From NCBI GenBank assembly GCA_965649295.1, contig CBFGKH010000001.1, positions 1 through 64,000 of the forward strand: a stretch of 64,000 nucleotides of DNA. The letters are read 5' to 3'. The notes beneath the pieces were generated by a model, which saw only the letters and a program-made list of their open reading frames with translations, did no database searches and was not told where the DNA came from. This document shows positions 3,201-19,490 of this stretch, in pieces. Position numbers and translations under genes: made by a program. The DNA comes from a candidate division WOR-3 bacterium. GTDB lineage: Bacteria; Hydrothermota; Tepidihabitantia; Tepidihabitantales; Tepidihabitantaceae. Each line of letters opens with the position of its first letter. The stretch's first letter is position 1.

Positions 3201-6200
3201 AGCCGTATCGCCTTCAGCCTACGTCCGCAACTACGGCAGTTGGAACGAAACTTTCCAGGTACAATTGACCATCGCCGGACCGGCTGGGTTCAACTACACC
3301 AGCACCCAGAACGTCACTAATCTGCCACCAAACACCCTCCGCTTGGTCAACTTCTCGCCGGCGACGCCCGGCCTTGCCCAGGGCTACTACACAATGAAGC
3401 TGAAGACGTTGCTGGCCGACCCCTATCCCCAAAACGACTCTATTCTTGGCAGCTTCATCGTTATGGGCGCTCCTACTGGCCTCTCGCCAAACGGGCCCAA
3501 TGTCTGGCTTACTAGCCCGTTCGTCAACCTTGACTGGGATGACCTGGCTGGAGCCGAAAGCTATCAGCTCGAAGTCGCACTCGACCCCGGATTCGCCGCG
3601 GTGGTCTTCAACGCCTCCGGGCTGACTGCTTCGCAGGCGACGACCGACTCACTGGCCGATGGCAGTTACTACTGGCGTGTTCGCGGTATGAGTGGCAGCA
3701 TCAACGGGAATTGGAGTGCCACTGCCCAGTTCAATGTTGACGCAACGCCGCCCGCTGCACCGGTGCTGCTGACCCCTCCGGACTCGGCCACTGGCGTCTC
3801 GCTCCGACCCACATTCACTTGGACCGAAGTTGAATATGGTTACCAACCAGAACACCGCCAGCTTGAGAAGGAAGGTCGTGACGAAGTCGAATACTACGAT
3901 ATTCAGGTTGCCCGCGATTCAGGCTTCACCGACATCATTTTCACTGCCACACCCCAGACCAACTCCTACACGCACATCGTTGACCTTGCCTACTCCACCA
4001 CCTGCTACTGGCGAGTCCGCGGCATAGACTACGCCGGTAACACCGGTCGTTGGGGTGGTCCGTCGGTATTTACTACTATTCATCCAGCCGCACCTACTTT
4101 GCTCGCGCCCACCAATGGCGCTTATCTCAACAACCGCACCCCGACGTTCAGCTGGAGGTCCTCAACCGGAGCCAACTACTACGAGCTTCAGGTTTCTGTT
4201 GACTCGCTGTTCAGCACTCGTGTGATTGACGTCGGCCTCCCCGAGACGACATACGTACCATCGTCGAGCCTGGCTGACGGCCGCTACTATTGGCGTGTTC
4301 GTCCTTCGGCCAACTCTGGCAACACTTGGGGCGATTACTCGCCAGTTTTCAGCTTCAGCCTTGACGCAACCGCGCCGCTCGCCCCAACACTGCTTACCCC
4401 GGAACCGGCCGCAGTCAACGTTTCACTGGTACCGAACTTCACTTGGACCGAACTCGACCTTAATCAATTGGGTCACGCCAAGTCTCCGGCCCTTGATCTC
4501 TTAGACCACTACGACATCCAACTGGCAACTGACCCTGGATTCAGTAGCCCCGTCTTCAACGTCACTACAACCATCCCTGCATACACTCATTCTGAAAGCC
4601 TCGCCTATCTCACTAGGTATTACTGGCGCGTGCGCGGTGTTGACGACCACGGCAACATCGGGCCATGGGCCACTGACAGCTTCACAACCATCATTCGGGT
4701 ACCAACTGCCCCGGTGCTGGTTGCGCCACCGAACGGCACGGTCAACCATCCTCGCGCCGGCGACCTCATCTGGCAACCTGCTGCCCGTGCTGCCTGGTAC
4801 GATGTCTATCTTGACATTGTTTCCCCACCGGTCGAACGGATTGCCACTGGTATCACGACAACGACACTTCACGTTGAAGACCTCGGTGGCGACATCACCT
4901 ACTACTGGCGCGTGGTTGCCATCAATGCCGGTGGCGACAGTAGCTCCGCCATCTGGAGTTTCACCACCGTGCCTGGCCCACCAGCACGCCCGACTCTTGT
5001 CGCTCCAGAGAGTGGTGCTGTCAACGTACCAGTCAATGGCATTCTCGACTGGCGACCGACCGCGGGCGCAACCAGCTACGACGTGTATCTGGACACTGTC
5101 AACCCGCCGGTCTCACTGGCTGCAACTGGACTAACTGAAACCCAACTTGACTACTCTGGACTCAGTCACCTAACTTGGTACTACTGGAAGGTAGTCGCCA
5201 CCAATGCTGGCGGCAGTACTGAGTCACGAGTTTACTCCTTCCGAACTGTGATTGCTGCACCGGCAACCCCCGAGTTACGGTTGCCTGCCGACCGTGCTCG
5301 CAACGTCGCCCGCAATGGCACTCTTGTGTGGTTCCCTGCCGAACGCGCCGAGAATTATGACGTTTACCTTGACCAGCAGAACCCGCCGTTAGTCTTGCTA
5401 GCCAGTGACGTCTCGGAGGTATTCCAATGTTACGATAGCCTGGCCTACGGTACGACCTACTTCTGGCGGATCGTTGCTAAGAATGTCGGCGGAACAGCCC
5501 AATCGCCAGTCTGGTCATTCACAACCATTGCCGATATTCCCGGGGGTTGGACTCCCCGTCCCGAAACCCTAGTCGGGACTCCAGTGAAAGATGGCGGTGC
5601 GCTCGCTTACGACCCTGAGCACGAACTCATCTATGCCATCAAGGGCAACAAGACCAATGAGTTCTGGCAGTATTCGGCAACAGATAGCACTTGGACCAGA
5701 CTACCTGACGTCGGCGGAACACTGCGACCGGTTGGCAAAGGCGCTGGCATGGCCTGCGGTGGTGGGTATGTCTTCGTCATCAAAGGCAACAATACGAATG
5801 ATTTCTACCGGTATAGTATCACTGAAAGAACCTGGACCCCGCTACGTCCCATTCCCCTCTCGCGTGACCAGACCGCGACCCGCGGTAAGAAAGTCAAAGG
5901 TGGCAGCAGTCTCGCCTATGTCTGCAAGAATGACTCTAGCTTCATCTATGTTCTCAAAGGTTCAGGCACGAACGATTTCTACCGCTATGACATTGCTGCC
6001 GATACCTTCCTGACTCTCGAACCGGCGCTGTACAATACCCGACCGAAATACGATAAAGGTAGCTGGATTGTCTATGACGGCAGCCAGTTCATCTACTTGA
6101 TGCAGAACAAATACAATGCGCTCTTCCGCTACGATGTTCGAACTGGTCAGTGGCTCCCAACACCAACTCTGGCTGGTATGCCGCTGGACAGTCGTGTGAC

Positions 6201-6810
6201 CGGCAAGACCAATAAGAAGGTTGGCGACGGCGCTGCCGCCGCCTGGGACGGAAGTGCCATCTATGCCTTCAAAGGCAACAACACGAACCAGTTCTGGAAG
6301 TACCTCCCTGGCGTTGACAGCGATACTTGGATTGAACTCGAATCACTGCCGCAGACGTACCCTGGCGATGCTCGCAAGAAGAAAGTTAAGGCCGGCGGTG
6401 CGATTGCCTATCACCTTGGCCAGGGTGTCTTTTATGCATTGAAAGGCAACAAGACAAATCAGTTCTGGCGCTACAAACCATCCGGCAATGTCCTTGCTCC
6501 CCCAGGCCGGACGCGGGGAATCGCCGCCTTGGAAAACCGCCAGACGCCGCGGACGATGCTGTCCATTGCTCCCAATCCCCTCACCTCGCGCTTCGTTACA
6601 GTTAGACTGGCTGTGCCCCTAGCACTACCAGGACTGCAGCCAACCATTTCCGTATTCGACGCTGTGGGCCGGAAGATTCCTGTCCGTCTCGCTTCGTCTG
6701 ATGATGCCACGTTCACGATCGACCTGCAATCAATCCCTGCTGGCGTCTACCTGCTCCAAGTCAACACCAGCACGGCCACGTTCACAGAGAAACTCGTCAT
6801 CCAACACTGA
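253..6810 (+). CDS. Giant (~2185 aa) secreted multidomain protein: N-terminal propeller-like region, CARDB/Ig domains, two nidogen-like modules, multiple Fn3-like repeats, six-bladed Kelch-type propeller, T9SS-type C-terminal sorting domain
   Basis: Start moved from 211 to ATG 253 (SD GGGAGG at 242-247); hydrophobic signal ending AAA; repeated YYWRV motifs; six KGNxTNxF(W/Y)xY-like repeats; C-terminal PNP...FDAVGR...GVYLL...KLVIQH. Confidence 0.8.
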   Translation: MLRALFGAGPALGSAKARRGYSPFTNGAFGYLIIPFLLLVSSVAAAKPPVWEDHQGTNDVRPMRPRTRPKSSLLSRDISYSIEWRMPLRDSVCLGLTPINDTLLWVSSGGANSSDDPNRVLVYNLRTRTLVDSFLQPTTTEYGWRDMSRIGNSVFASDEDGVYEISIPTRAVVNTFIPDTELVPHRAMAAVPGESLLSANWNSRIWKFHRTGNNPHAYDNELQIYGMGYDSRGFVWASTQEIGGHPEIAKLSYPNLVPLDWTELPSPPGDVSGGCEMWRDSFLLVLSQSTTTDEVICVRLYFANRDIGVAEILEPSMPWVGKPTTPRALITNYGISTVGSIAATCSIFGTARTLRYQRDTTITLTGGATATVTFGTWTPTNKESCLVKVTVQATADPNPNNDTLTRSVLVRRRTHTGGPDANLYLWVDSDTADPNAPVFSWVDTTGGETLPIAGDDEGVVVTPPFPITYRGVQYETLYVCSNGWIRFGGSPGTNQWVNVAMPNSAIPNNIVAPFWDDCQVGGAYNGAVVTKTIGNPPNRRFVVTFQDVEVNFRTGDYMSFQALFSESSEDIIFQYDDVVVGYPTFDYGRSATVGIENSTGTVGLCYLHNGDPDGNILTSGLAIRFWRPPPPDHDIGVTTIASPTTAGVPMRPRPVTIKATIRNFGTSLENNIPVICSVFGEENQERWNAFTVIPSVPAGESVTVTFDGWQPTVIERATIGIYTALIGDELPYNNNRLQVCPVFRAYFTGGPDAMGYRFIDSDTTGGPTYSWSNITSSGTPITFPSSDDGAVTIPLPFTFYFYNAAHNSISVSTNGLLSFQPGGLSGTETENDLLPNPQAPNYLIAPLWDNLDQVVPGRCRYATQGTAPNRVFIISYDSIKFWGAANPFGTGLAFQVKLYETSNQILFQYRKIAPGAPAHDRGASACVGIENADGTAGLTYENNAWPSGNLLDSARAIRFYPTHDVGAAAFNVPANQSVLAPGTAVSPSAYVRNYGSWNETFQVQLTIAGPAGFNYTSTQNVTNLPPNTLRLVNFSPATPGLAQGYYTMKLKTLLADPYPQNDSILGSFIVMGAPTGLSPNGPNVWLTSPFVNLDWDDLAGAESYQLEVALDPGFAAVVFNASGLTASQATTDSLADGSYYWRVRGMSGSINGNWSATAQFNVDATPPAAPVLLTPPDSATGVSLRPTFTWTEVEYGYQPEHRQLEKEGRDEVEYYDIQVARDSGFTDIIFTATPQTNSYTHIVDLAYSTTCYWRVRGIDYAGNTGRWGGPSVFTTIHPAAPTLLAPTNGAYLNNRTPTFSWRSSTGANYYELQVSVDSLFSTRVIDVGLPETTYVPSSSLADGRYYWRVRPSANSGNTWGDYSPVFSFSLDATAPLAPTLLTPEPAAVNVSLVPNFTWTELDLNQLGHAKSPALDLLDHYDIQLATDPGFSSPVFNVTTTIPAYTHSESLAYLTRYYWRVRGVDDHGNIGPWATDSFTTIIRVPTAPVLVAPPNGTVNHPRAGDLIWQPAARAAWYDVYLDIVSPPVERIATGITTTTLHVEDLGGDITYYWRVVAINAGGDSSSAIWSFTTVPGPPARPTLVAPESGAVNVPVNGILDWRPTAGATSYDVYLDTVNPPVSLAATGLTETQLDYSGLSHLTWYYWKVVATNAGGSTESRVYSFRTVIAAPATPELRLPADRARNVARNGTLVWFPAERAENYDVYLDQQNPPLVLLASDVSEVFQCYDSLAYGTTYFWRIVAKNVGGTAQSPVWSFTTIADIPGGWTPRPETLVGTPVKDGGALAYDPEHELIYAIKGNKTNEFWQYSATDSTWTRLPDVGGTLRPVGKGAGMACGGGYVFVIKGNNTNDFYRYSITERTWTPLRPIPLSRDQTATRGKKVKGGSSLAYVCKNDSSFIYVLKGSGTNDFYRYDIAADTFLTLEPALYNTRPKYDKGSWIVYDGSQFIYLMQNKYNALFRYDVRTGQWLPTPTLAGMPLDSRVTGKTNKKVGDGAAAAWDGSAIYAFKGNNTNQFWKYLPGVDSDTWIELESLPQTYPGDARKKKVKAGGAIAYHLGQGVFYALKGNKTNQFWRYKPSGNVLAPPGRTRGIAALENRQTPRTMLSIAPNPLTSRFVTVRLAVPLALPGLQPTISVFDAVGRKIPVRLASSDDATFTIDLQSIPAGVYLLQVNTSTATFTEKLVIQH

Positions 6811-6829
6811 CCTCGGTCTGGGTACTTTT

Positions 6830-6880
6830 CGGGCGGCAGCGGCGTCGTGCCGCTGCCGCCCGGTTCGGTTGGTTTCTTTC
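6830..6880 (+). terminator. Intrinsic terminator
   Basis: Perfect 14-bp stem CGGGCGGCAGCGGC/GCCGCTGCCGCCCG followed by a T-rich tract. Confidence 0.8.
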
Positions 6881-6942
6881 CGTCGCGTTGCAGACCCTCG
6901 TTGACTCTGCGTCTCCCTATAGCAACCACGTATCTCGGACAA

Positions 6943-6970
6943 TTGACACTCAGCCGATTGCTGCTATCCT
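6943..6970 (+). promoter_or_regulatory. sigma70-type promoter of the rpmB-GDP-sugar operon
   Basis: TTGACA-16 bp-TATCCT; SD AGGAGG before the TTG start. Confidence 0.6.
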
Positions 6971-7000
6971 GTCCCAAGAACAACTCAACTAGGAGGAACA

Positions 7001-7189
7001 TTGGCTCGGCATTGTGAGATTTGCGGCAAGACTGGCGCAGTCGGTAACACTATCAGCCACGCCCACAACGTGACCCGACGCCGTTTTGACCCTAACCTGC
7101 AACATGTCAAGATAAAGGAGAACGGTACTGTCCGCCGTGCTTGGGTTTGCACCCGTTGCCTGCGGTCCGGTCGCGTCACCAAGGCTTGA
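7001..7189 (+). CDS. rpmB: 50S ribosomal protein bL28
   Basis: [10 protein letters not shown]...[20 protein letters not shown]...VCTRCLRSG, zinc-type L28. Confidence 0.97.
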
Positions 7190-7231
7190 ACCAGTATTCT
7201 GCCTTGGAACTTTTCTAGTCTAGGAGGCTTC

Positions 7232-8185
7232 GTGAGGTACCTCATTACCGGTATTACCGGCTTTGCTGGCAGCCATCTCGCCGAATACCTACTCAGCCGC
7301 AACGACGGTGAAGTGCATGGCATCCGACGCTGGCGTTCCCGCATGGACAACATTAGTCACCTTGAAGGCAAGGTAACTCTTCATACCTGTGACATCCGTG
7401 ATGCCACGGCGATGTATGAGCTCATCAACCGACTCCGGCCTGACCGCATCTACCACCTAGCTGCCCAGAGCTTTGTACCGATGTCCTGGATTGCCCCGAC
7501 CGAGACGCTGACCACCAATATCATTGGTCAAACCAATCTGCTAGAGGCAGTCCGCACCTGTGCCTGTCCGGCCCGTATTCAAATCGCCTGCTCTAGCGAA
7601 GAATACGGGCTGGTCCGACCAGAGGAAACCCCGATCAAGGAATCGAACCCACTTCGTCCCCTCTCACCTTACGGCGTCAGCAAAGTCGCTCAGGACCTGA
7701 TGGGCTACCAGTATCACCAAAGCTATGGTATGTTTATCGTCCGCACACGCGGCTTCAACCACACCGGCCCGCGCCGCGGCGATGTGTTCGTCACATCAAA
7801 CTTCGCCCGGCAGATTGCTGAGATCGAAAAGGGCCTGCGGCCGCCCGTGATTCATGTCGGCAATCTTGAGGCTATCCGTGATTTTACCGACGTCCGCGAT
7901 ACCGTTCGTGCCTACTATCTGGTGCTCGAACAGGGCGAGCCTGGCCAGGCCTACAACGTTGCCACTGGCAAGGGCTATCGTATCCGCGAGATGCTCGATA
8001 TCCTGCTCGGTCTGAGCCACGTCAAGGTTAGCGTTGAACCTGACCCCCAGCGAATGCGACCCAGTGACGTCGAACTGCTCATTGGCGACAGTACCAAGCT
8101 TCGTCAGACAACTGGCTGGCAGCCCACGATTCCCTTCGTGCAGACGATGAGCGACTTGCTCGACTACTGGCGCCAACGCGTGTGA
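7232..8185 (+). CDS. gmd: GDP-mannose 4,6-dehydratase family extended SDR
   Basis: LITGITGFAGSHL, HLAAQSFV, SSEEYG, YGVSK, FNHTGPRR, GNLEAIRDF. Confidence 0.8.
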   Translation: MRYLITGITGFAGSHLAEYLLSRNDGEVHGIRRWRSRMDNISHLEGKVTLHTCDIRDATAMYELINRLRPDRIYHLAAQSFVPMSWIAPTETLTTNIIGQTNLLEAVRTCACPARIQIACSSEEYGLVRPEETPIKESNPLRPLSPYGVSKVAQDLMGYQYHQSYGMFIVRTRGFNHTGPRRGDVFVTSNFARQIAEIEKGLRPPVIHVGNLEAIRDFTDVRDTVRAYYLVLEQGEPGQAYNVATGKGYRIREMLDILLGLSHVKVSVEPDPQRMRPSDVELLIGDSTKLRQTTGWQPTIPFVQTMSDLLDYWRQRV

Positions 8186-9117: not shown

Positions 9118-10037
9118 GGCCAACGTCCGACTCAGCCGGTGCAGAGACCCGCTCTCACGCAGGTCAAGGAAAACCACGCCTGTCAATCATAATTGTCACT
9201 TGGAACAGCGCTGCCGATATCGAAAACTGTCTCGACTCAATTACGTTCGACGGCAACTTTGAAGTTATCATCATCGACAATGCTTCCACTGATGATACGG
9301 TCGCTCGCGTCCGCCGCTACAACCAGTTTGTCCTTGTCGAGAACAAGGTGAATCTCGGCTATGCCCGAGCCAACAACCAAGGTTTGGCTATCGCCAGCGG
9401 TCAATACGTCTTGCTCCTCAATCCCGACACTGTACTCAGCCCCGGCGCACTCGAGGAACTCTGCCGCGAGCTCGATGAAGTTCCTGATGCCGGTGCTGTT
9501 GCGCCGCGGTTGGTCAATCCAGATGGCACTGACCAAGCTTCGATTCGCTCACTGCCAACGGCCACAGCTGTTTTCTTTGAGATAACAGGCCTCTCCTCAC
9601 TCTTTCCTGGTAATGCTGTTCTTGATCACTGGCGCTTGCGTAAGTTTGACTACAATACTGCGCAGGATGTTGAACAACCGATGGCCTCGTGCTTGCTGTT
9701 CCGTCGCGCCGTTTTGATGGAGCTTGGCGGTTTCGACGAGAGATTCCCGATCTTCTACAACGATGTGGACATCTGCCAACGACTACTGACCGCTGGCTGG
9801 AGAATCCGCTACTTGCCGACGGTCAAAGTCATGCACCGCCGTGGCGCGAGTACCAGTCAGGTCAGACTGAAAATGATTAGGGAAAATCACCTCTCCCTCT
9901 TTCGCTATCTAAGTAAGCACGACCGAAGCAAATGGTTTTGGCTCAAAGCGGTCTGGCTACTGCCAACCCTTGAACTTGCAACACTTGTTAGAACGATGCT
10001 TTGGCGACTACGCGGCAACAGACCGAAGTCTCGATAG
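9114..10037 (+). CDS. GT2 family glycosyltransferase (WbbL/rhamnosyltransferase-like)
   Basis: SIIIVTWN, IIDNASTD, NLGYARANNQG, LLLNPD, GGFDERFPIFYNDVD. Confidence 0.85.
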   Translation: MRPTSDSAGAETRSHAGQGKPRLSIIIVTWNSAADIENCLDSITFDGNFEVIIIDNASTDDTVARVRRYNQFVLVENKVNLGYARANNQGLAIASGQYVLLLNPDTVLSPGALEELCRELDEVPDAGAVAPRLVNPDGTDQASIRSLPTATAVFFEITGLSSLFPGNAVLDHWRLRKFDYNTAQDVEQPMASCLLFRRAVLMELGGFDERFPIFYNDVDICQRLLTAGWRIRYLPTVKVMHRRGASTSQVRLKMIRENHLSLFRYLSKHDRSKWFWLKAVWLLPTLELATLVRTMLWRLRGNRPKSR

Positions 10038-10070
10038 TTCATACCCATCCGGCCTTACCGGCAGGTCAGC

Positions 10071-10737
10071 AAAAAAGGAGCCGCTCTAACCTGCGAGCGT
10101 CCAAGAGTGCCAATTTCTTATGAGAGGCGGCATTCTCTTCCAGTGCGAACGACCTTCAGGTGTAGAGCAGCCCCAAACAGTTGAGGCTCGTCGGGCAGCA
10201 TCATGAGAGGATTGGGGGGCCGTTTACGAGGACTTGGGGCGCGGGCTACGACCCAAGAAGGAGGCTATGATGCCGGCCCCCGCTGATGCGAGCCGGTGCT
10301 GTATCATGCGGACCCACTCCAGATTCGCTGATGCTATAGTCTTTCGGCACCAGAGTACTGCCTGAAGTCCGCTTCCTGTTTCCCCGGTCATGGAGCGGTT
10401 ATCCCTGCTCTGGACCTTCCCTAACCAATTGCGGGCGAATGGCACGAAGAGGTTCAAGCTGTCTGAGGCTTGGGACAACGGCGAGAGGCTGAGATGGCAG
10501 AGAGACCCTTGGTGTGATGCGCCCTTTCATAGAGCATTCATCGCCTTCGTCCATTCGCCAAATCTTACTTCAAAGGCGAACAGGATGCTGCCCGACGAAC
10601 CGTAAACTCCAGTTTGTCAAAGAACCACCGACCAATCTCCGGAAGGGGATGCTTGCCCACAGCCATCGCGGTAACCAAACGGAGGTACCTAATTGTCACC
10701 GTCAAGCACCCCCTCCCAGTTCCATTCGTGTAACCCG
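10071..10737 (-). ncRNA. Putative large structured non-coding RNA of unknown class
   Basis: 18-bp helix 10601-10584/10202-10185; 15-bp helix 10559-10545/10449-10434; terminal rod 10174-10077 followed by U6 (10076-10071); imperfect pairs are G-U on the minus strand; upstream sigma54 promoter and boxA; no credible ORF. Confidence 0.62.
10611..10626 (-). promoter_or_regulatory. boxA-like antitermination element
   Basis: GGTTCTTTGACAAACT resembles rRNA-leader boxA (GYTCTTTRAMA); preceded by hairpin ATCCCC-TTCC-GGAGAT. Confidence 0.55.
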
Positions 10738-10747
10738 CCCATCAAAT

Positions 10748-10764
10748 TGCATCTGTCGTGCCAA
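10748..10764 (-). promoter_or_regulatory. sigma54 (RpoN) -24/-12 promoter
   Basis: TTGGCACGACAGATGCA = TGGCACG-N4-(A)TGCA with exact GG-N10-GC spacing. Confidence 0.6.
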
Positions 10765-10843
10765 ACACTCCAAAGGCCTCCTAAGAATACAACACCCTGA
10801 CAAATGGACACTTAGCCGTGCAACCACAGATACCAGCTTGAGG

Positions 10844-10929
10844 TGCGACATGTCTGCGACATGCGTGGATTAGACCCTAAGGCTTTGGCAATCAATGAAT
10901 TAGCTCGTTGCGACCGAACACCGGTTGCA
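10844..10929. promoter_or_regulatory. Candidate enhancer-binding-protein sites
   Basis: TGCGACATG direct repeat at 10844 and 10855 (11-bp period); imperfect palindrome TGCGACCG-N5-CGGTTGCA at 10909-10929; 80-165 bp upstream of the sigma54 site. Confidence 0.35.
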
Positions 10930-10947
10930 GAACTACGGACACTCTCC

Positions 10948-10975
10948 TTGACTCTCTCAAGGCTGAGACTATAAT
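10948..10975 (+). promoter_or_regulatory. sigma70 promoter of rimP-nusA-infB (leaderless)
   Basis: TTGACT-16 bp-TATAAT; ATG 6 nt downstream. Confidence 0.75.
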
Positions 10976-10981
10976 CCGGTG

Positions 10982-11572
10982 ATGGCCGGAACAAACCATC
11001 AGGCCCTTCGTGACGTAGCGGCGCTTGTTGCCGAGCAGTTCGGCGTTGTTCTCTATCACATGGAGACAACGGCTGTATCAACTCGGATTGAGATTGACTC
11101 GCCGACTGGAGTGTCACACAACATTTGCTCAAGATTCCTCCGTTCCTTCACTCAAGAAGCCGAGTCACGCGGACTGCTACCACGTGGCTACACTTTGGAA
11201 GTGTCTTCACCCGGTATCGAACGCAACCTGTATCAACCGCGCGATTTCGCCGCCGCCATGGAGCGCCGTGTCAAGGTTTGGACACGAACCGGAGTTACTG
11301 AGGGAACAATTTCAGCTGTTGACGATATCGGCTTTCTGCTCCGTCGGAGAACGAACGAAGGTGAACAACACCAACGTATCGAATTCTCGATTGTGACCAG
11401 GGCTCGTCTCGTTGTCAGCGATGCAGAACTCTTCGGCCGACGGATGACAAACGAACTGAGTAATGGCCGACGCCGACGTCAAACTCCGGTCGCCAGCCGC
11501 CAGGCCGGCAGCCCGACCGACAGGTCCTTGAGTCGTAGCACGCTACCGGCCAAAGGAGTGCCGTGTGAATAA
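10982..11572 (+). CDS. rimP: Ribosome maturation factor RimP
   Basis: YTLEVSSPGIERNL motif; directly upstream of nusA. Confidence 0.88.
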   Translation: MAGTNHQALRDVAALVAEQFGVVLYHMETTAVSTRIEIDSPTGVSHNICSRFLRSFTQEAESRGLLPRGYTLEVSSPGIERNLYQPRDFAAAMERRVKVWTRTGVTEGTISAVDDIGFLLRRRTNEGEQHQRIEFSIVTRARLVVSDAELFGRRMTNELSNGRRRRQTPVASRQAGSPTDRSLSRSTLPAKGVPCE

Positions 11573-19417: not shown

Positions 19418-19490
19418 TGGAGCCGACGGGAGTCGAACCCGTGACCTCTTGACTGCCAGTCAAGCGCGCTCCCAACTGCGCCACGGCCCC
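19418..19490 (-). tRNA. tRNA-Ala (anticodon GGC), CCA not encoded
   Basis: GGGGCCGTGGCGCAGTTGGGAGCGCG-CTTGA CTGGCAG TCAAG-AGGTCACGGGTTCGACTCCCGTCGGCTCCA; G3:U70 pair. Confidence 0.96.

Follow-up and report, generated by a model that had tools for sequence, protein, structure and literature searches.

Does the 941-bp gap between a glycosyltransferase gene and rimP hold a functional RNA in its own right, or only the leader, relic or control region of some other gene? The question arises in the first 64,000 nucleotides (nt) of contig CBFGKH010000001.1 from a candidate division WOR-3 bacterium (this whole stretch is called the window below), where a first-pass annotation had proposed a large, independently transcribed non-coding RNA (ncRNA) on the minus strand and had called it a strong candidate for an undescribed system. 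On the comparative evidence presented here, the locus, which runs on the minus strand from about 10737 to 10071 (~667 nt, about 670), encodes a real, conserved, covarying, non-coding structured RNA. The RNA family is previously undescribed and is confined to one uncultured order. As to its role, we think it rather probable, with ample room for doubt, that this is a stand-alone functional RNA that was ancestrally an operon leader, and that is made from a sigma-54 promoter as a boxA-bearing transcript; more tentatively, it may act in trans through loops resembling the anti-Shine-Dalgarno sequence.

Conservation and covariation of the RNA structure

A BLAST search of the gap against 40 relatives gave matches in 16 of them, in blocks that match the structural elements drawn in the first-pass annotation, and pattern scans added 5 loci from a species-genome collection and 23 from metagenomes. 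With near-identical copies and one locus that failed the anchor test (L062) left out, 27 non-redundant homologues were aligned (alignment A1). RNAalifold predicted 59 pairs on this alignment, 25 of them with compensatory changes. In a curated model of 80 pairs, 91.7% of cells are paired, compared with 39.0-51.5% in slid controls, in which the 3' partners were shifted by 1-3 columns; both sides have changed at 39 of the 80 pairs (14-22 when slid) and in 151 cells (27-45 when slid). A second control consisted of 500 column shuffles, none of which reached any of the observed pairing measures, and both controls are exceeded on all five measures. Covariation, which the earlier annotation had named as a check on its proposal, goes beyond what the controls produce.

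The same alignment fixes the polarity of the RNA. G-U pairs are abundant in it (GU in 14 of 27 sequences and UG in 22 of 27 at two pairs of the 3' rod), and since these would be mismatches on the opposite strand, the RNA must be read from the minus strand, as had been claimed; the orientation of boxA, the sigma-54 promoter, and the U tracts listed below set the same strand. Folding energy is uninformative as a strand test and proves nothing alone, since its z score is almost the same for the minus strand (-2.49) and the plus strand (-2.46). The minimum-energy fold of the minus strand includes the long-range helix P1, the inner helix P2 and the rod. From 5' to 3', the control sites and the parts of the RNA are as follows.

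10915-10909, minus strand: distal activator box GGTCGCA (consensus in relatives TGTCGCAA), 152 nt upstream of the -24 element
10861-10855 and 10850-10844, minus strand: proximal activator boxes, two TGTCGCA copies within the palindrome CATGTCGCAGACATG
10763-10748, minus strand: sigma-54-type -24/-12 promoter TGGCACGACAGATGCA, conserved in relatives
10717-10641, minus strand: 5' hairpin P0, arms 10717-10703/10655-10641, both-side changes in 5 of 8 pairs, 80.1% of cells paired
10685-10675, minus strand: conserved loop motif of P0, CCUCCGUUUGG
10626-10614, minus strand: boxA GGUUCUUUGACAA, with a conserved extension ACUGGAGU to 10606 (motif boxA-NN-YGGA)
10601-10584, minus strand: 5' strand of P1, an 18-bp long-range helix, pairing with 10202-10185 and including one G-U
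10559-10544/10451-10434, minus strand: helix P2, 15-16 bp, closing a CU-rich loop
10508-10472, minus strand: CU-rich loop of P2, GGGUCUCUCUGCCAUCUCAGCCUCUCGCCGUUGUCCC (GGGUCUCUCUGCCAUCUCAGCCUCUCGCC), nearly invariant in homologues
10433-10373, minus strand: lineage-variable purine-rich region (GGGAAGG...), poorly alignable, with a local hairpin in the minimum-energy fold that is specific to the genome under study
10372-10367/10313-10308, minus strand: helix GCGGAC/GUCCGC with a variable insert, 79.4% of cells paired, both-side changes in 4 of 10 pairs (the genome under study is misaligned here in A1)
10281-10215, minus strand: most conserved domain, scoring 68.6 bits with covariance model R1 in the genome under study
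10281-10274/10222-10215, minus strand: helix Pa, GGGGGCCG/CGGCCCCC, in which two of the 27 homologues have U-A in place of C-G
10266-10252, minus strand: invariant loop AGCCUCCUUCUUGGG, resembling the 3' tail of 16S ribosomal RNA (rRNA)
10257-10252/10238-10233, minus strand: conserved helix Pb, CUUGGG/CCCAAG
10202-10185, minus strand: 3' strand of P1, closing the ~380-nt core
10174-10077, minus strand: 3' rod, an irregular ~100-nt hairpin, scoring 94.8 bits with covariance model R2
10132-10121, minus strand: apical loop of the rod, UGCCGCCUCUCA; its internal loops CCUGAAGG/CAGGGUA are also conserved
10076-10071, minus strand: U6 tract, forming an intrinsic terminator with the base of the rod

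The elements on which the first proposal was built have mostly held. The 18-bp helix said to enclose some 380 nt is P1, in which both sides have changed at 8 of 10 pairs and 97.9% of cells are paired across the 27 homologues (for example GC in 15 sequences and AU in 10, or UA in 13 and CG in 9), and the 15-bp inner helix said to close a C/U-rich loop is P2, the most strongly covarying element of all (13 of 14 pairs with both-side changes; helices 4-5 together, 15 of 16). The rod followed by six U residues was likewise read correctly, and the rod is conserved in relatives; in its outer helix both sides have changed at 3 of 8 pairs, with GC in 22 sequences and AU in 4 at one of them. The multibranch domain fared less evenly: GCGGAC/GUCCGC and CUUGGG/CCCAAG are conserved, whereas GGUC..GAGC/GCUC..GACC and GGCA/UGCC are specific to this genome and lie in the variable region. 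Two further helices have to be given up, AUGAU..CCGGCUC/GGGCCGG.AUCAU because it conflicts with the conserved Pa and AUUGG/CCAAU because its CCAAU partner is not conserved in A1. In the genome under study (G000) P1 pairs perfectly over 18 bp, both P2 and the rod are complete, and the consensus of the CU-rich loop is kept; the core domain deviates at two places.

Two weaker pairings came out of the alignment. A hairpin GGC/GCC predicted by RNAalifold (columns 794-796/803-805) is broken in two sequences and competes with Pa, and it was dropped from the model. A column scan paired the invariant CCUCCUUCUU with the purine-rich GGGAAGGAGG (columns 528-534/809-815); by our own reading, the pyrimidine side never varies and the changes in L014 and L016 are uncompensated.

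Known families, coding capacity and copy number

The RNA belongs to no described family. Rfam 15, run at gathering thresholds over the whole window, gave nothing at the RNA locus, a result that covers OLE, GOLLD, ROOL, HEARO, raiA, rimP-leader, tmRNA, RNase P, 6S, SRP and rRNA, and a permissive scan of 9800-11200 (E up to 10) returned four chance-level matches, the best at 17.1 bits against a threshold of 40. A confident Rfam hit, which would have removed the novelty of the RNA, was thus looked for and is absent at the locus. Small- and large-subunit rRNA (SSU/LSU) and rimP-leader do not match it even at E up to 10. A divergent housekeeping RNA is ruled out, since copies of RNase P, tmRNA, 6S and SRP RNA stand above cut-off elsewhere in G000 (on C7, C4, C1:197727-197901 and C10, respectively); the hallmarks of tmRNA, RNase P, SRP and rRNA had already been noted as missing from the locus, and 6S joins them. 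A full-text search of the literature found no described RNA that joins a sigma-54 promoter with activator sites, an rRNA-type boxA and a long-range clamp around a core of ~380 nt, and the RNA remains the strong candidate for an undescribed system that it was taken to be. The sole Rfam match at gathering thresholds in the window is a transfer RNA (tRNA) gene at 19418-19490 on the minus strand.

The locus might instead be protein-coding, through small open reading frames (ORFs), or a mobile repeat such as a miniature inverted-repeat transposable element (MITE). Mechanical ORFs of 43-119 amino acids (aa) do overlap the region, but three examined within the gap match no Pfam family, and among the 27 homologues there is no conserved ORF, the longest open frames varying in strand and place, nor any 3-base periodicity (column variability by codon phase 0.283/0.258/0.271). 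A small protein is thereby ruled out, and the view that there was no credible ORF stands. The dispersed repeat fares no better. The 941-bp gap occurs once in the 2.28 Mb of G000 (100% complete, 19 contigs), the RNA is present in one copy per genome with conserved synteny (the only exception being a weak second rod match in G030), and a search of a viral contig collection returned no copy; single copy number and the absence from viral contigs rule out a repeat or phage origin, and with it the dispersed MITE that would have refuted the ncRNA model. Either version of this reading is hardly credible. Part of the sequence was matched in 8 runs from 3 studies, all as DNA contigs labelled hot-spring or, at a small share, lake-water metagenomes; these are run labels, which name no habitat, and no RNA run is among the runs with the sequence.

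A sigma-54-type promoter and its candidate activators

Upstream of the RNA stands a sigma-54-type promoter with GG at -24, GC at -12 and 10-nt spacing (TGGCAC-N5-TTGCW). The pattern TGGCA[CT]-N5-NTGC[AT] precedes boxA by 103-157 nt in 23 of the 25 loci with boxA located; at -12, L008 and L009 carry GT instead, and L007 is a doubtful case. Sigma-54 transcripts usually begin 12 nt after the -12 GC, which would place the start near 10737. Farther upstream, the distal TGTCGCA box keeps its distance within each lineage (-151 to -155 in family f1, -164 to -169 in f2, -142/-143 in genus g3), and so does the proximal box (-85 to -88 in most of f1, -99 to -102 in f2, -77/-78 in g3). The 7-mer is present in 21 of 22 upstream regions, the sole exception having just 68 nt of upstream sequence. 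No sigma-70-like site was found on the RNA strand between 9900 and 11100, the only one there being that of rimP on the plus strand. From these conserved sites we strongly infer that initiation depends on sigma-54 and an activator. The claim that the RNA has its own promoter is thus upheld, from conserved sequence, and the type of promoter is newly specified.

Which activator might be involved is suggested by distribution. G000 encodes rpoN and five strong bacterial enhancer-binding proteins (bEBPs). Genomes of family f4 have only three bEBPs, one NtrC-like, one a giant of ~1755 aa and one of ~525 aa like a protein on C8 of G000, and in the five f5 genomes checked the number is 0-2, every one of them NtrC-like to judge by size. 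Of the 66 genomes of the order, 51 have the N-terminal domain of the C8-type protein, none of them from f5; it is present in 28 of the 30 genomes positive for the rod (the two misses are 63% and 88% complete) and in 23 of the 36 that are negative. Family f5 thus has neither the RNA nor the C8-type protein nor the giant kinase-type protein (the last as seen in the five genomes checked). The activator could be either the C8-type (531-aa) or the giant kinase-type (1756-aa) bEBP, both of which fit the distribution and are not separable by it.

The giant bEBP (G000:C7:135801-141071, 1756 aa) reads as a fusion in which an N-terminal Ser/Thr kinase is joined to long TPR-like repeats, a region resembling GAF and a domain for sigma-54 activation. 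Families f1, f2 and f4 conserve this protein, and it was not found in the five f5 genomes checked. A second sigma-54-type promoter, TTTGGCACGACTGATGCAAT at G000:C1:292478 (region 292560-291960, minus strand, outside the window), is identical to that of the RNA at 19 of 20 positions, has a TGTCGCA box 82 nt upstream, and fronts ~500 nt without an obvious gene; this locus may belong to the same regulon or encode a second RNA.

The gene on the other side of these control sites offers a further explanation, that the region serves the divergent rimP-nusA-infB operon, as an antisense RNA, as shared control DNA, or as a rimP leader. The operon starts at 10979 on the plus strand; in most relatives, too, rimP and/or nusA adjoins the RNA and is divergent from it, and a rimP-leader family exists in Rfam. 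The structure, boxA, promoter and terminator, however, all lie on the strand opposite rimP, which has a sigma-70-like promoter of its own at 10948-10975, no rimP-leader match was found, and in genus g3 a peptidase gene takes the upstream place, so that the RNA is not adjacent to nusA. We therefore give control of rimP very little credence. The rimP promoter (plus strand, TTGACT-16-TATAAT, 11/12) is near-consensus and ends 4 nt before the listed GTG, so either rimP is leaderless or its true start lies farther downstream.

boxA and the likeness to ribosomal RNA units

Close to the 5' end of the transcript, on the sense strand, lies a boxA of the form GYUCUUUNANA, as had been reported, and it recurs in 25 of the 32 loci scanned; five have none by this pattern and two lack the anchor. 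A genome-wide scan of G000 for boxA-like words gave four matches, namely the RNA, the 23S leader (GCUCUUUGACAAUUUGGAG) and two inside apparent coding sequence, one of these judged by eye. The 16S leader has the variant GUUCUUUGAUAAUUCGGAU, read directly, after which a leader-trailer helix of 20 bp encloses the 16S gene, and in the non-coding DNA of G000 the combination of boxA with YGGA occurs, besides the RNA, only in the 16S and 23S leaders. As read from its sequence, the RNA has the layout of an rRNA transcription unit in miniature, placed behind a promoter of the sigma-54 type. The Nus-factor antitermination complex of rRNA operons confers resistance to Rho and aids the pairing of distant halves of rRNA helices, and by analogy Nus factors probably load at this boxA as well. 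boxA is also known from CRISPR arrays.

Several side observations concern these elements. The 16S and 23S genes of G000 are unlinked (C3:164318-165861 and C13:30833-32116), each with its own sigma-70-type promoter and boxA, and the 16S gene is followed by an apparent terminator rather than by spacer tRNAs. Five f2 homologues (L013, L015, L046, L056, L065) carry a second boxA-like word, GGUUCUUUUACAA, right after the promoter. Their rod is followed by strong U tracts, and an additional hairpin of 60-150 nt separates it from the P1 3' strand.

The same likeness raises the possibility that the locus is the relic of an rRNA operon, that is, a leader, processing stem and spacer left after deletion of the rRNA gene. 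A boxA and a helix of the leader-trailer type, as in the 16S unit of G000, would be expected of such a relic, and the core has a CCUCCUU stretch. In four relatives, moreover, tRNA-Ala(UGC) lies 110-130 nt after the rod on the same strand (L114, L115, L119 and L120, in G004, G007, G024 and G016, respectively, all lacking the protein gene that usually lies downstream), an order that resembles the 16S gene followed by tRNA-Ala in rRNA operons. Against this, neither SSU nor LSU matches the locus at E up to 10, its promoter is of the sigma-54 type while the real 16S and 23S units have sigma-70-type promoters, and compensatory changes accompany the conservation of its core across four families, as they would not in a relic. 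We consider descent by such decay highly improbable.

CU-rich loops and possible targets

The single-stranded part of the core suggests what the RNA might do. The motif CCUC[CU] occurs 4.1 times per RNA (range 1-7), compared with 1.5 times in shuffled sequences, the core CU-rich loops repeat GCCUCY, and CCUCCUU is common to the invariant loop AGCCUCCUUCUUGGG and the 16S tail GGAUCACCUCCUUUCU. G000 uses Shine-Dalgarno sites, GGAGG lying upstream of 11.2% of crude starts against 1.2% in an internal control. Because of the CCUC[CU] excess, the likeness to the 16S tail, and this use of Shine-Dalgarno sites, we tentatively propose that the RNA may bind ribosome-binding sites, or a protein specific for such sequence, while the activator is on.

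A variant of this proposal makes the RNA, induced through sigma-54 and both produced and folded with the help of the rRNA antitermination machinery (boxA and a leader-trailer helix), a decoy for the message-binding tail of the small ribosomal subunit. Its several exposed CCUCC/CCUCU loops, one of them nearly the same as the 16S 3' end, would capture Shine-Dalgarno sites of messages, or a protein that handles the 16S tail, and so retune translation globally whenever an environmental signal sets off the activator. We regard the decoy as a long shot. If it were true, translation regulators would gain a new class, and no large RNA other than rRNA would have been shown to be Nus-dependent before this one.

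The best complementarity match in G000 involves a different loop, that of P0, which is perfectly complementary over 15 nt to the ribosome-binding region AAACGGAGGUACCUA (genome-wide E 0.027, maybe chance). The ORF that carries this complement, at G000:C7:~141277-141340 on the plus strand, consists of 20 codons, is proline-rich (MPVFGIPIPPRPGPVAPPVR), and is followed by a terminator.

Distribution and the operon-leader alternative

The core-domain model R1 finds one copy in 22 of the 66 genomes of the order, including G000; by family, and apart from G000, these are 19 of 43 in f1, 2 of 2 in f2, and none of 4, 6 and 10 in f3, f4 and f5, counts that, like all those made with R1 and R2, come from samples under strict search filters, where not found does not mean absent. 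The rod model R2 reaches 30 of the 66, singly in 29 and with a second, weak match (E 2.7e-4) in G030; these comprise G000, 20 of 43 in f1, 2 of 2 in f2, 1 of 4 in f3, 6 of 6 in f4 and none of 10 in f5. In a sample of 151 genomes from the phylum, R1 gave 9 matches, all in f1, and R2 matched 13 genomes, none outside the order, with 31 other families sampled. An f4 genome that is negative for R1 has a reduced homologue, in which a sigma-54 element close to consensus precedes the RNA along with a TGTCGCA box, and in which boxA, a hairpin like P2 and a clear rod with U7 can be recognised; its match to the core domain is weak (18.2 bits, E 0.021).

The downstream side of the locus differs among these genomes. 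In G000 the gene 3' of the RNA is convergent: that side holds plus-strand genes for two sugar-nucleotide epimerase/dehydratase-type enzymes and for a family-2 glycosyltransferase, the last of which ends at 10037. In most relatives the RNA is followed instead, after 25-100 nt, by a gene for a protein of ~650 aa. The protein belongs to no Pfam family and has a lipoprotein-like N-terminus (a signal peptide and Cys, by our own reading), and the atlas clusters closest to it consist of hypothetical proteins, for the most part with the label Bacteroidota or Fidelibacterota. At the only locus examined for what follows (L094, G023, 4415-7575), the next gene is DUF5723/PorP-SprF-like. The gene family is broader than the RNA, being found in 40 of 66 genomes, f5 included, and the only relative in G000 is a 24%-identical paralogue 210 kb away that is preceded by coding sequence and has no leader. 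In the genus of G023 the gene upstream of the RNA encodes an M14 peptidase bearing a C-terminal signal for type IX secretion, and the two-gene unit together with this peptidase would point to a lineage of the FCB (Fibrobacterota, Chlorobiota, Bacteroidota) group. Some f1 loci (e.g. L002, L004, L005, L010, L047) have a conserved CCGGGGG(A/U) 20-30 nt after the rod and ahead of the start of the downstream gene; this word is absent in G000.

This setting is what would be expected if the RNA were a purely cis-acting 5' leader, a sensor or attenuator in which the rod-terminator and the anti-Shine-Dalgarno-like stretches gate read-through or translation, the copy in G000 being an orphan that has not yet decayed. 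In f1-f4 the RNA directly precedes the gene and is read in its direction, the f2 and f4 leader carries CACCUCCUUAC, which by our own reading is complementary to the ribosome-binding site AAGGAGGUG of the gene, and boxA-dependent terminator read-through is a known route to the expression of distal genes. If the RNA were only such a leader, however, a co-directional gene should follow it in every carrier, and seven genomes from four genera (G004, G007, G016, G024, G059, G063 and G000) keep the RNA without an adjacent ~650-aa gene, with helices that are perfect and/or covarying (in G007 a P1 pair is swapped from C-G to G-C) and with invariant loops. The next gene is convergent in G000, strong U tracts separate the RNA from the gene in f2, and a core of ~550 nt with a long-range clamp far exceeds known cis-regulators. 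On balance we judge a leader confined to cis unlikely, although it deserves serious attention.

Our preference for a stand-alone RNA has to be set against several observations that weigh in the other direction. As many as 26 of 32 oriented loci, some of them redundant, have the co-directional ~650-aa gene just downstream, as a cis-acting leader would, and the close form of the gene (E at most 1e-78) accompanies the core domain in 16 of 22 genomes, whereas among the 44 that lack this domain it is present in 1, as a contig-edge fragment. In f4 only ~25 nt separate the U tract of the rod from AAGGAGG and the GTG start; since this leaves no room for a separate promoter, the gene could be reached only by read-through of the rod. 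Core-domain scores are 36.7-70.7 bits where the adjacent gene is lacking and 76-95 where it is present, which could mean relaxed selection, and at least four U residues directly follow the rod in only 7 of the 27 homologues of A1. Strict sigma-54 sites number 22 in G000 where ~13 are expected by our own arithmetic; a single motif in one genome is therefore near chance, and the assignment of the promoter rests on its conservation. As for the loops, some homologues have only one CCUC[CU], the invariance of the loops means that a pairing partner is not showable by covariation, and the complementarity search for trans targets in G000 mixed orientations, is weak for that reason, and returned only 12-15-nt chance-level matches.

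Function in its own right is nonetheless favoured because the RNA persists with maintained pairing in genomes that lack the adjacent gene, and we think that it most likely does something on its own in G000. The description of an independently transcribed ncRNA thus applies to G000, with its convergent next gene and its own promoter, boxA and terminator (the rod base and U6, as first described), and fails in most relatives, where the RNA appears as the leader of the ~650-aa gene. Independent transcription is probably the derived state.

A model for synthesis and action

If the RNA is a stand-alone transcript, its synthesis would begin when an enhancer-binding protein occupies the TGTCGCA boxes ~87 and 152 nt upstream and sigma-54 polymerase starts from the promoter at 10763-10748. 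The nascent RNA would then show the P0 hairpin and boxA, on which NusB/NusE and other Nus factors would presumably load. A Nus-loaded polymerase should resist Rho on this long untranslated RNA, and the distant halves of P1 may be helped together, as they are in rRNA. Once formed, the 18 bp of P1 would clamp a ~380-nt core that displays the invariant single-stranded CU-rich loops, and the 100-nt rod with U6 would end the transcript. As for its history, the RNA may have been, in the ancestor as in most relatives today, the leader of a surface-lipoprotein/PorP-SprF-like operon reached through read-through of the rod; in G000 the operon would have been lost from the locus and the RNA kept intact with its own terminator.

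What follows synthesis is more speculative. The RNA might be induced by a signal, stable, and perhaps cut in P1 by RNase III. Its exposed anti-Shine-Dalgarno-like loops could conceivably bind purine-rich ribosome-binding sites, or a protein that recognises them, in which case the translation of target messages might be damped for as long as the sigma-54 activator is on.

Within one order the RNA appears as an operon leader, a reduced leader, a unit before tRNA-Ala and a stand-alone gene. This amounts to a natural experiment in which the transition from leader to independent RNA is directly testable. If the proposed transcription is correct, the Nus-factor machinery would extend to non-ribosomal structured RNA.

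Comparison with known systems

Regulatory RNAs that depend on sigma-54 are known, among them Qrr1-4 with LuxO, GlmY/GlmZ with GlrR, and the Y-RNA-like YrlA/B in the RtcR operon. They resemble the RNA described here in that an ncRNA is made only under the control of sigma-54 and of an enhancer-binding protein that is dedicated to it and has sites upstream, but they are 100-200 nt long, linked to Hfq or Rsr and without boxA, and are not homologous to it. For the proposed mechanism the model is provided by RsaE/RoxS, C-rich small RNAs of the Firmicutes whose exposed pyrimidine-rich loops are complementary to GGAGG-type sites; these are ~100 nt long and have proven targets, whereas those of the present RNA are hypothetical.

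Its closest architectural counterparts are the leaders of rRNA operons, with which it shares the extended boxA motif and a hairpin ahead of it, a helix of 12-18 bp that encloses the functional RNA over a long range, and an untranslated transcript that would need protection from Rho. It differs from them in that the enclosed RNA is ~380 nt long and not similar to rRNA, and that activator boxes and a sigma-54-type promoter take the place of a sigma-70 one. Other non-ribosomal transcripts also use boxA, and none of these cases, CRISPR arrays among them, is known to have a large structured core. They include the suhB leader and further genes (Baniulyte et al. 2017; PMC5725501); this main survey of boxA targets explicitly set non-ribosomal structured RNA aside.

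Large folded bacterial RNAs of unexplained function are rare, and OLE, GOLLD, ROOL, 6S and tmRNA have each revealed unexpected biology. The RNA studied here matches none of OLE, GOLLD and ROOL in sequence or structure, as judged by Rfam, and we know of none of the three with a sigma-54 promoter or boxA. OLE has a ribonucleoprotein partner, OapA; the ~650-aa protein is unlikely to be a partner of this kind because it looks exported. What it has in common with OLE, GOLLD and ROOL (PMC12286853, PMC10898510) is a length of ~600 nt, many conserved helices, invariant loops, a narrow, environment-linked distribution, and a frequent position in or beside an operon with a gene for a membrane or envelope protein.

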